UHGV virus genome: UHGV-1461890 | Length of the DNA stretch: 41,432 nt | Source: a virus | Reading direction: 5' to 3' (one strand) | In this document: positions 32,111 through 33,839 of the stretch, piece by piece | Layout: every line of letters starts with the position of its first letter | How positions within the stretch are numbered: the first letter of the stretch is position 1 | Notes under the pieces: generated by a model | The model's input: the letters and a program-made list of their open reading frames with translations, nothing else | Told to the model about the DNA's origin: nothing | Database searches by the model: none | Made by a program: the position numbers and the translations under genes

Positions 32111-33607
32111 CTAAATATCGTGAAAATAAATAGCTAAATTGCCTTTAGCCTTTTCAAATACAACCTTTTCAATTATTGTGCGTAACGCTTCATTCTTAGC
32201 CCGAGGTGTTACATCTTCCCTTTTTATGAACTCAAGTATGCCTACAACCTTTTCAGAGAAGGCATCTATGTCAATATCCTTAACTATGACCTTATCCCTA
32301 TCCTGCTTTAATTTCTCAATCTTAGTGGTTATTTCAGCCTTATTATTACCATACTGTTCAATGGTATCAATTTCGGCAAGGTAAGCCTCCTTTGCTCTTT
32401 CAAGCCTTCTTTCCTCTAAGGCTATGAGCTTATCATAGTCTATGGTAGGCTTTTCAGTTTGCTTAGGTGCTTTGGGTGTGATGTTAAATTGTTGGCTTCC
32501 TATGGCCTGTTCTAAACCTTTAATAAAGGCGCTTTCTAATTTAATCATACTGATAGAGTGAGATGTGTGACAAGAGCCTCTTGAATAGTTGCAACATTGT
32601 AAGGAGTGTGTTTTTTTCTTTGCAGCAAGATTCCTTGTTCCGTTATAAGCAAGTGTCGCTCCACAAGCACTACATCTAACAAGCCCTTTAAGGATATAAT
32701 CAATAGGTTGCTGCCTCCGAGCATGTTTAGAATACAACAATTTCATAGTTTGCAATCTTTCCTGAACCTTATCCCACAGTTCCATTGATATAAGTGGTTG
32801 CCAATTACCATCAATAATTTGGATGTTTTCATTGAGATAATCCCTTTTACTTACTACCTTTGAACCATCAGGTGTCCATCTGATTTTACCTATATAAGCA
32901 GGATTCCATAAAATATACTCTATCCACCTATTATCAGGTATATTACCTCTTTTGGTACGAACTCCTCTCTGCCCGAGCGAAATTGTAATTTCTCTCATAC
33001 CTTCACCATCAGCAAACCTTTGAAATATTTCTTTGATAACATCGGCAGCACCGCTTTCTACATCGGGAAGATAGGTTTTATCACCATTTATGTATCCAAA
33101 AGGAGCAAATACAGCAGGCTCTCCTCTGCTTACCTTTTCTTCCATGCCTCTTGATACTTCAGCGCCGAGGTTGATAAGGTAAAATTCATCCATCCATTCT
33201 ATAATTCTCTCCATGAGGCTTCCAAAAGGACCTTCAGGTATAGGCTCTGATACAGATTTAACCGATATGCCTATCTTTTGAAGCAAGTTTTTATATACTA
33301 TACTTTGCTCTTGGTTTCTTGCAAAACGAGATAACTTCCACACATATATAATATCAAAGGGATGATTTTTCTCCTTTGCCATGGCTATCATCAAGTTAAA
33401 GTTATCTCTTTTCTTTACGCTCTTTCCTGAGATACCATCATCATAAAATACATACTCATCAGGGATTAAATAACCTTCCCTTGCTGCAAATTCTCTGATT
33501 TTTTTGAGCTGAGAATCAGGACTGTATTCATCTTGCCTTTCATCCGATACACGAACATAGGCAGCTCCTATTTTTAATAATTCGTTTTCCACTTTATCAC
33601 TCCTCAT
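32111..33607 (-). CDS. large serine recombinase (integrase)
   Basis: N-terminal resolvase-type motif GAAYVRVSDERQD (catalytic Ser), SRFARN, central recombinase region, Cys-rich zinc ribbon (CSACG ... CC ... C), C-terminal coiled coil; 498 aa. Confidence 0.9.
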   Translation of the reverse strand: MRSDKVENELLKIGAAYVRVSDERQDEYSPDSQLKKIREFAAREGYLIPDEYVFYDDGISGKSVKKRDNFNLMIAMAKEKNHPFDIIYVWKLSRFARNQEQSIVYKNLLQKIGISVKSVSEPIPEGPFGSLMERIIEWMDEFYLINLGAEVSRGMEEKVSRGEPAVFAPFGYINGDKTYLPDVESGAADVIKEIFQRFADGEGMREITISLGQRGVRTKRGNIPDNRWIEYILWNPAYIGKIRWTPDGSKVVSKRDYLNENIQIIDGNWQPLISMELWDKVQERLQTMKLLYSKHARRQQPIDYILKGLVRCSACGATLAYNGTRNLAAKKKTHSLQCCNYSRGSCHTSHSISMIKLESAFIKGLEQAIGSQQFNITPKAPKQTEKPTIDYDKLIALEERRLERAKEAYLAEIDTIEQYGNNKAEITTKIEKLKQDRDKVIVKDIDIDAFSEKVVGILEFIKREDVTPRAKNEALRTIIEKVVFEKAKGNLAIYFHDI

Positions 33608-33839
33608 CTATTTCATCTTCAAAATCTTCAGCACAATATTCACATACTGTTCTACCATCTTTTAAGTGAAAAAACTCAACATAGTCATAAGACCAATACT
33701 CGTTACATTCCTCGCATAAAAAATAGTTTTCATCTAAGCATTTCTTACACAGGTGATTTTTCTCGTCAGCAATAACCAAATCACAGTTTTCAGTTCCACA
33801 CTCAGTACAAGTGCCGGTATATTCTCTTGAAGTGTTCAT
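33597..33839 (-). CDS. small zinc-ribbon protein with acidic C-terminal tail
   Basis: Five CxxC pairs (CTEC, CKKC, CEEC, CEYC plus CxxxxC); tail EDFEDEIDEE; AGGTGA SD; 11-nt overlap with integrase start. Confidence 0.5.
   Translation of the reverse strand: MNTSREYTGTCTECGTENCDLVIADEKNHLCKKCLDENYFLCEECNEYWSYDYVEFFHLKDGRTVCEYCAEDFEDEIDEE

Follow-up and report, generated by a model that had tools for sequence, protein, structure and literature searches.

A small acidic tandem Cys4 protein encoded next to phage integrases of two superfamilies

Background

Large serine integrases and the tyrosine integrases of phages are major tools of genome engineering. In lambda the slot next to int is occupied by xis, and the known recombination directionality factors (RDFs) of serine integrases make specific contacts with their own integrase. 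Here we describe a small gene in a similar slot of the UHGV virus genome UHGV-1461890, a stretch of 41,432 nucleotides that is referred to as a whole as the window. The gene is an open reading frame (ORF) at 33597..33839 on the minus strand, directly upstream of a large serine integrase gene, and encodes an acidic protein of 80 residues with two four-cysteine (Cys4) sites. 'Zn gene' and 'Zn protein' are used below as labels for this ORF and its product; the metal itself may be zinc or iron.

Several described systems are close to this locus in position or in properties. The region between repressor and integrase of Firmicute phages is a known site of exclusion and defence genes (with the lactococcal Sie proteins and the defence genes of cluster N mycobacteriophages as examples), and in phiCD27-type phages and ICEBs1 the metalloprotease ImmA takes a slot between repressor and integrase. 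The DNA mimics Ocr, ArdA, T7 Gp5.9 and phi29 p56 are small, very acidic proteins of phages and mobile elements that act as stoichiometric decoys of DNA-binding enzymes; their genes usually are early genes or lie in the leading region, and the proteins are not known to contain metal sites. YacG (PF03884), a tiny chromosomally encoded protein with a single Cys4 finger and an acidic C-terminal segment, blocks DNA gyrase by direct binding. Finally, small 'LIM-like' zinc-finger coding sequences (CDSs) are present in the lysogenic-conversion modules of C. difficile phages (Hargreaves & Clokie 2014, PMC4009436).

The Zn protein and its family

The ORF is a genuine gene, as indicated by the ORF call, its homologues, the selection acting on it and the AlphaFold2 model of its product. 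It has 80 codons starting with ATG (the stop codon is included in the coordinates), and the Shine-Dalgarno sequence AGGTGA (33843..33848, minus strand, read from the sequence) is found 4 nt before the ATG, within the spacer of 15 nt that follows the stop codon of the preceding gene. The protein has the sequence MNTSREYTGTCTECGTENCDLVIADEKNHLCKKCLDENYFLCEECNEYWSYDYVEFFHLKDGRTVCEYCAEDFEDEIDEE, in which 23 acidic residues face 6 basic ones (net charge -17). An initial annotation of this DNA had correctly described 80 residues with an acidic end, EDFEDEIDEE, but counted five CxxC-type pairs. There are four such pairs (C11/14, C31/34, C42/45 and C66/69) together with a lone, unconserved C19, giving nine cysteines in total and a ligand spacing of C11-x2-C14-x16-C31-x2-C34-x7-C42-x2-C45-x20-C66-x2-C69.

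A word-indexed search of 5.8e9 proteins yielded 11 clusters that match the Zn protein at 46-84% identity. With a profile built on these clusters, 424 cluster representatives were found at E<=1e-3 and 56 at E<=1e-10 (1.84e9 proteins searched), and a broader family profile found 86 proteins at E<=1e-5. We define this family ('tandem Cys4 acidic', A2) by two CxxC(G)...CxxC repeats, eight invariant cysteines, a KDGR-type hairpin in the second unit and an acidic C-terminal helix of the form x-E-D-hydrophobic-[DE]n. The window protein bears all of these features and matches the A2 profile at 2e-31. In the alignment of 40 members that are 31-84% identical to it, the only invariant columns are the eight paired cysteines, and C19 is variable. 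Acidity is a family trait as well: among 136 small members, 93% have a net charge of -8 or lower, with a median of -17. Past the last CxxC, 125 members give the consensus x-E-D-[LFYI]-[DE]4-I-[DE]n; together with the modelled helix (residues 67-76) and a comparison of the integrase junction with a related locus (L001), this delimits the acidic C-terminal helix and tail AEDFEDEIDEE of the window protein (33600..33632, minus strand).

For a comparison of loci (numbered with the prefix L; homologous proteins carry a P) we drew on Logan, ENA and JGI contigs, on IMG/VR and on GTDB genomes, which supplied 32 distinct loci that hold a stand-alone homologue; the window makes 33. The ratio of non-synonymous to synonymous substitution rates (dN/dS) of the Zn gene is 0.06 between the window and L001, 0.12 between the window and L012, 0.23 between L016 and L017 and 0.03 between L014 and L009, so that the protein sequence is under strong purifying selection. 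At one locus (L013, 1331..1558) the Zn gene is interrupted in frame by a stop codon exactly where the motif C-x-E-Y-W has its conserved Tyr, with an otherwise intact serine integrase downstream; this is either a pseudogene or a sequencing error.

Scans of the Zn protein against Pfam, PHROGs, NCBIfam and PADLOC gave nothing above threshold, with zero families among the PADLOC-DB defence models at E<=0.01, and the PDB sequence search gave zero matches at E<=10. No match was obtained by tblastn to the INPHARED phages (with the window protein, a diverged member and an array segment) or to the PLSDB plasmids (with the window protein), where the low-complexity filter may mask acidic or Cys-rich matches, nor by megablast of window positions 31000-37500 against phages. 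We found no literature on the tandem Cys4 acidic family. The window contains no second copy of the Zn protein, its polyvalent protein of 3782 residues included.

The Zn protein is an internal duplication of a Cys4 unit of about 33 residues: its two halves are homologous (hhalign probability 85%, E 6.9e-6), and hidden Markov models of the units detect each other. Unit 1 (residues 8-40; 33720..33818, minus strand) has a CxxCG knuckle, C11/C14, followed by C31/C34 at the N-terminus of a helix, and unit 2 (residues 41-75; 33615..33719, minus strand) has the C42/C45 knuckle, the conserved KDGR hairpin and C66/C69 at a helix N-terminus, both units being delimited by invariant cysteines, the model and unit homology. 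AlphaFold2 with the family alignment gave a mean predicted local distance difference test score (pLDDT) of 85. Each modelled unit consists of a beta-hairpin with the CxxC(G) knuckle, a further strand and a helix that carries the second CxxC at its N-terminus; this arrangement occurs twice in tandem, and the second helix (residues 67-76) bears the acidic 'tail'. We model the protein as tandem treble-clef fingers of LIM-like layout, in which the Cys4 sites would bind metal, either zinc or iron. In Foldseek searches against the PDB, LIM domains came out on top at non-significant values (E of at least 0.095), and the best structural neighbours are treble clefs of the LIM, FYVE and GATA type, all of them weak matches. 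Against BFVD, phage proteins labelled as amidoligase, 'LIM domain containing' or uncharacterised were found at E 2e-3 to 3e-1.

Several known families were considered and rejected. LIM (PF00412) is not among the Pfam matches at E<=1, which comprise only Zn_ribbon_SprT, GATA and DZR, all below their cut-offs. The Zn protein also departs from the LIM ligand pattern C-x2-C-x16-23-H-x2-C-x2-C-x2-C-x16-21-C-x2-(C/H/D), as its ligands are all cysteines and its inter-finger spacer has 7 residues against 2. Zn_ribbon_SprT (PF17283) reaches 17.1 bits against a cut-off of 28.1 (E 0.0057) and covers residues 6-34 only; the homologue P0005 bears a precomputed PF17283 flag. For a rubredoxin-type iron protein the CxxCG knuckles fit, but no rubredoxin model is among the Pfam matches at E<=1. 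Some relatives end in ...EIDFDF, which recalls the C-terminal tail of single-stranded DNA-binding protein (DDDIPF); this likeness is inexact, is absent from the window protein and concerns residues in a predicted helix.

Genomic neighbourhood and module exchange

The Zn gene holds its position while the genes on both of its flanks are exchanged, and it is decoupled both from the integrase family and from the type of repressor. Annotation of the neighbouring genes by Pfam, PADLOC and phmmer shows a same-strand integrase adjoining the stand-alone Zn gene at 23 of the 33 loci. This integrase is of the serine type in 8 (the window, L001, L012, L013, L017, L018, L033 and L046) and of the tyrosine type in 15 (L007, L009, L010, L014, L015, L016, L021, L027, L028, L036, L040, L042, L044, L048 and L056); the other 10 loci (L005, L006, L011, L020, L022, L023, L024, L025, L051 and L054) have no integrase in the recovered sequence. 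Conservation of the gene pair, which the initial annotation had named as a check, is thus observed, and a place upstream of int, which it took to be unusual for such a protein, turns out to be the rule for the family. The integrase follows directly or at a distance of at most two small ORFs (at L033 it lies directly upstream instead), and the arrangement is still kept by homologues of 34-36% identity (P0053 and P0052). Spacing between the two genes can be as tight as a 1-nt gap (L047) or a 4-nt overlap (L021), and at many loci there are spacers of 20-35 nt with an independent Shine-Dalgarno sequence, or ORFs in between. Directly upstream of the Zn gene a helix-turn-helix (HTH) gene is often found. 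The minimal modules (L044, L048-L050) contain a repressor, a small convergent ORF, the Zn gene and int, the Zn gene being the sole gene between the repressor region and int.

The exchange is most clearly seen in L016 and L017, which share about 88% DNA identity from the upstream gene onwards, up to a point 7 nt short of the Zn stop codon, and then diverge completely: at L016 the Zn gene is followed by a tyrosine integrase, at L017 by a serine integrase. On the other flank, the homology of the window to L001 (81%) and L012 (72%) sets in at the Zn start codon and extends through the integrase, whereas the genes upstream of the Zn gene differ. Between L044 and L048 the Zn proteins are 95% and the integrases 100% identical, against 35% for the repressors. 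Correlations over 14 loci are weak and without any excess for the Zn protein (rho 0.26 for Zn against repressor identity, 0.34 for Zn against integrase identity and 0.35 for repressor against integrase), and mean Zn-protein identity hardly differs between pairs with the same integrase type (0.46) and pairs with different types (0.44). Given this exchange of both flanks, it is difficult to see how the product could depend on recognising one integrase, att site or repressor in particular.

Among the loci without an integrase, L005 (3876..7794) has a tight operon of a 70-aa HTH gene, the Zn homologue P0008 (54% identical), a type III Mod (PADLOC MTase_III, 1e-168) and a type III Res, with spacers of 5 nt on both sides of Mod. 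At L006 (597..2812) the gene of homologue P0007 is flanked by those of a DUF7662 protein and, downstream, a PD-T4-3 GIY-YIG defence protein (4e-28); the other strand encodes an ABC-type ATPase. The Zn gene of L023 is placed between a PIF1 helicase and a DEDDh-DpdF/PsyrT-like helicase, that of L025 precedes a DUF4379 protein resembling restriction endonucleases, and in the otherwise typical phage lysogeny module of L054 the gene of an LRR_5 protein takes the integrase slot beside the Zn gene. A separate observation concerns the tyrosine integrases of L007 (8272..9381), L010 (5612..6733), L042, L044, L048 and L056, which have an unusual N-terminal Zn_Ribbon_1 (MLCKKCKKEIPDESKFCNLCG...) ahead of the arm-binding domain.

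Junction with the integrase

That the next gene downstream encodes a serine integrase, as initially annotated, is borne out by its Resolvase, Recombinase and Zn_ribbon_recom domains in Pfam and by its match to PHROG 95 (integrase). The gene spans 32111..33592 on the minus strand if it starts with the GTG at 33592, which is likely from a comparison with L001/L002. The longest integrase ORF opens at the ATG at 33607, which has no good Shine-Dalgarno sequence; the integrase of L001/L002, 84% identical to that of the window, has the N-terminus MENELL, and the matching window codon is the GTG. Starting here, the integrase has 493 residues, the same as in L001. The hexamer GAGGAG (33600..33605, minus strand), 7 nt upstream of the GTG, is formed by the last two Glu codons of the Zn gene, and as judged from the sequence these acidic-tail codons likely contain the integrase Shine-Dalgarno sequence. 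The previously reported overlap of 11 nt therefore applies to the longest ORF, while with the likely GTG start there is a gap of 4 nt between the Zn stop codon and the integrase. With either start the two genes are tightly packed, and they are plausibly coupled in translation.

Organization of the lysogeny module

The window, about 41 kb long, has the look of a complete temperate phage, of a type met in metagenomes of gut Clostridia. Its plus strand carries the structural and lysis genes and, past the minus-strand module, early genes (Cro-like, YqaJ and RecT-type). Read from the repressor end, the minus strand encodes a CI-like repressor, a 141-aa HTH protein, a 191-aa protein with a hydrophobic C-terminus, the Zn protein and the integrase. 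The CI-like HTH repressor (35204..35626, minus strand; 140 aa) was assigned by Pfam HTH_3 and Phage_CI_repr and by PHROG repressor families. The first gene of the operon (34441..34866, minus strand) encodes the XRE-type HTH protein of 141 aa, which has a coiled-coil C-terminus (Pfam HTH_3, 2.3e-10), and the second (33855..34430, minus strand) the 191-aa protein, the translation of which shows apparent membrane segments in its hydrophobic C-terminal region and matches no family. This slot holds variable cargo: other phages have lipoprotein-like or unrelated genes here, and the 191-aa gene is absent from L001 and L012. Since the spacers between the HTH, membrane protein, Zn protein and integrase genes are only 10, 15 and 4 nt, we consider these genes a four-gene operon.

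The operon is probably transcribed from its own promoter within the intergenic region 34867..35121 (delimited by promoter scan and blastn, and partly conserved in L001 and L012), given that a convergent ORF of 58 aa sits between repressor and operon; the promoter scan itself gave no confident minus-strand promoter for the integrase operon. This conserved ORF (35122..35298, plus strand) starts with MSNNLIELLSIILESGNPEQAV, has a strong Shine-Dalgarno sequence and overlaps the 3' end of the repressor gene, with which it is convergent. It is preceded by a strong promoter-like site (34978..35007, plus strand; sigma-70-like, 11/12, with TG) that is divergent from the integrase operon. L001, L010, L012, L044, L046 and L048 each have a homologous ORF of 51-58 aa at this place and in this orientation. 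The ORF is, next to the Zn gene, a further small gene of such modules that is conserved and unannotated; it may be an antisense or switch element.

A non-coding stretch of the same region (34976..35133) is about 78% conserved in L001 (6599..6768) and L012 (1470..1702), though the flanking cargo genes differ; conservation at the sequence level suggests a regulatory element between repressor and integrase operon. The Rfam scan of 31800-36200 returned no RNA family. Outside the module, the ORF at 15917..27265 (plus strand) encodes the 'polyvalent protein' of 3782 aa, with an ART-PolyVal ADP-ribosyltransferase domain at residues 2188-2354; its counterparts in the related phages L036 and L037 have 3253 and 3322 aa.

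Fusions of the Cys4 unit

The Cys4 unit (about 34 residues) is not confined to the small proteins. Arrays of 4-7 copies make up the N-terminal part of Amidoligase_2 (PF12224) proteins (P0033, P0036, P0064, P0071, P0077 and L035), and C-terminal arrays, with shorter runs of the unit, are found behind an unannotated N-domain of about 400 aa (P0026, P0027, P0054, P0060, P0062 and L034, 5032..6414). A DA1-like/M78-like peptidase is attached to a shorter run of the unit in L029. As the amidoligase and peptidase partners are predicted protein-modifying enzymes, these fusions together with the LIM-like layout suggest that the Cys4 unit recognises proteins. Neither Pfam nor NCBIfam has a match to the N-domain of about 400 aa, which shows the motifs SINPAHFLTMSNP, CHSLN, GYARD and NRKT(S/T)RQ(I/L)F.

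Function of the Zn protein

Structurally, the Zn protein would be a free-standing tandem Cys4 module that is stabilised by metal, presents a polyanionic surface and ends in an acidic helix and tail; as the product of the third gene of a four-gene operon that ends in the integrase, it would be made whenever the integrase is made. As its relatives stand beside serine and tyrosine integrases alike, we tentatively lean towards a general factor of lysogeny that binds proteins, a polyanionic decoy, inhibitor or adaptor that is co-expressed with the integrase and acts on a target outside the module. The Zn protein would then serve in protein recognition, as a stoichiometric decoy, an inhibitor or an adaptor, and its target would be encoded outside the neighbouring genes, most plausibly a basic nucleic-acid-binding protein of the host or of a competitor. 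Should this target be a restriction or other defence enzyme, the DNA-mimic idea of the initial annotation would be recovered as one special case. We count in favour of the decoy the invariant cysteines, the modelled fold, the acidity of the family, the fusions, the decoupling from neighbouring genes and the members without an integrase neighbour, which lie directly upstream of DNA-acting defence genes (the type III Mod/Res of L005, PD-T4-3 of L006 and the DpdF/PsyrT-like helicase of L023) or, at L054, in a phage lysogeny module. That the protein binds metal and other proteins, that it works as a decoy or inhibitor, and what it targets, we infer.

A number of points weigh against a decoy. Anti-defence genes usually turn over fast, whereas the Zn gene keeps its position down to 34% identity, and its place as the sole gene between repressor region and int in the minimal modules is a pattern more like that of a core lysogeny function. 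The searches brought up no likeness to ArdA or Ocr, to anti-CRISPRs, or to any of the families in PADLOC, PHROG and Pfam. Moreover, adjacency to an integrase at 23 of the 33 loci could reflect a role in recombination that is independent of the integrase family.

It might be argued that the Zn protein is a previously unrecognised core lysogeny factor of temperate phages of gut Clostridia that works with integrases of either superfamily, although we rate this as unlikely. The protein might neutralise a nucleoid-associated protein, defence protein or protease of the host that blocks the establishment or the reversal of integration. If true, this would add a generic third partner to site-specific integration, distinct from Xis/RDFs and IHF-type host factors, and targets of this class would also be recognised by the Cys4 unit where it is fused to amidoligases and peptidases.

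A component of the lysis-lysogeny switch, also a doubtful proposition, would act as anti-repressor, co-repressor or adaptor in the slot of ImmA, and might use its Cys4 sites to sense redox state or metal, or hand the repressor over to a protease. The minimal modules, which hold only repressor, convergent ORF, Zn gene and int, fit such a role, as do the HTH gene that is often directly upstream of the Zn gene and the gene order of phiCD27 (repressor, M78 protease, integrase), the Cys4 run of L029 being fused to an M78/DA1-like peptidase. In addition, the repressor of the window has no Pfam S24 self-cleavage match, so that another mechanism of induction may be needed. Nonetheless, the L044/L048 pair (Zn proteins 95%, repressors 35% identical) shows no co-variation with the repressor, the Zn gene belongs to the integrase operon with a convergent gene between this operon and the repressor, and homologues also occur in type III restriction-modification and PD-T4-3 contexts.

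The initial annotation had proposed an integrase accessory factor. On this view the Zn protein would attach to the integrase, or to the complex in which recombination takes place, and would govern directionality, activity or stability; operon and translational coupling would keep it at a fixed ratio to the integrase. This agrees with the same-strand integrase within two genes at 23 of the 33 loci, the tight spacing in the window, L047 and L021, the slot shared with lambda xis and the joint travel of Zn gene and int in the window, L001 and L012; furthermore, no other candidate RDF is evident beside int in these loci. The partners, however, come from two unrelated recombinase superfamilies (8 serine against 15 tyrosine), and Zn genes of about 88% identity stand beside either of them in L016 and L017, with the breakpoint at the end of the Zn gene. 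Zn-protein identity is likewise indifferent to integrase type (0.46 against 0.44), ten loci are without an integrase, a charge of -17 makes Xis-like DNA binding implausible, and known RDFs contact their own integrase specifically. An accessory factor in this broad sense appears quite unlikely to us. Of the initial idea the conserved gene pair stands, but not a specific serine-integrase partner or directionality factor: the pairing of Zn genes of about 88% DNA identity with serine and tyrosine integrases and the members without an integrase neighbour make an integrase-specific cofactor or RDF unlikely.

It is improbable that the Zn gene is protective cargo of the prophage, which would provide superinfection exclusion or defence and be expressed together with the variable membrane-protein and lipoprotein genes of the operon. 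The repressor-integrase region is known for such genes, the neighbouring slots hold proteins of hydrophobic or lipoprotein-like sequence and some homologues are placed beside bona fide defence genes; against this, there is no PADLOC match, the protein appears cytoplasmic without enzymatic or membrane features, and both its sequence and its place are kept while the truly variable cargo nearby is replaced. Least credible by far is a translational leader of which the product has little function and the translation merely feeds ribosomes to a poorly initiating integrase start: the Shine-Dalgarno sequence inside the last Zn codons, the likely GTG start and the tight spacing at several loci would suit it, but dN/dS values of 0.03-0.23 on the protein sequence, the eight invariant cysteines, the many loci with 20-35 nt spacers and an independent Shine-Dalgarno sequence or with intervening ORFs, and the homologues without a downstream integrase all speak against it.

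Overall, a conserved protein that is co-expressed with integrases is a candidate modulator of their activity. The Zn family is absent from Pfam, PHROGs, NCBIfam and PADLOC and marks the integrase operon of many uncultured phages of gut Firmicutes. If its target is a host or defence protein, it would represent a new class of small metal-stabilised inhibitors; a role in recombination would make it the first accessory factor common to both integrase superfamilies. On a conservative reading, it offers annotators a landmark for the integrase-proximal end of lysogeny modules and puts a name to the repeat unit that is met again in the amidoligase proteins of phages.

Comparison with known systems

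As to its place in the genome, the Zn gene resembles lambda Xis, other excisionases and RDFs in being a small gene directly upstream of int that is co-transcribed with it and overlaps or abuts it. Xis-type RDFs are basic winged-helix DNA binders, in contrast to the Zn protein, which has a charge of -17, lacks an HTH and is found with integrases of either superfamily interchangeably. Membership of the excisionase/Xis group was rejected, as there is no HTH or excisionase match in Pfam or PHROG, the charge is strongly negative and the modelled fold is a beta/alpha zinc knuckle. The co-inheritance and co-variation with a cognate integrase that mark serine-integrase RDFs (phiC31 gp3, Bxb1 gp47, TP901-1 Orf7 and SPbeta SprB) are not seen here, in view of the 15 tyrosine loci and the L016/L017 swap.

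With the DNA mimics Ocr, ArdA, T7 Gp5.9 and phi29 p56 the Zn protein shares a comparable charge density, a likeness of bulk acidity only. Unlike them it lies in an integrase operon, and it shows no sequence or fold relationship to them; ArdA (PF07275) and Ocr (PF08684) in particular gave neither a sequence nor a fold match. YacG would be a mechanistic analogy; the Zn protein has no Pfam match to it and, unlike it, has two fingers.

Like the Zn gene, the gp40-type CDSs of phiCD27 and phiC2 are small, encode a CxxC...CxxC protein and lie in antisense orientation, with the lysis genes on one side and the integrase on the other. Unlike the Zn protein, phiCD27 gp40 has one Cys4 unit, is basic and is not encoded adjacent to int, and tblastn with the Zn protein did not detect it. 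The Amidoligase_2 array proteins have the same unit of about 34 residues and match the family profile at E 1e-16 to 1e-10 over 2-7 stretches; these are enzymes of 400-750 aa with 4-7 units, whereas the Zn protein consists of two units and has no enzyme domain. Eukaryotic LIM domains and the LIM-peptidases of the DA1 family are also among the closest known systems. Taken together, we class the Zn protein as akin to the known small metal-finger accessory proteins of phages and to LIM-like tandem fingers.

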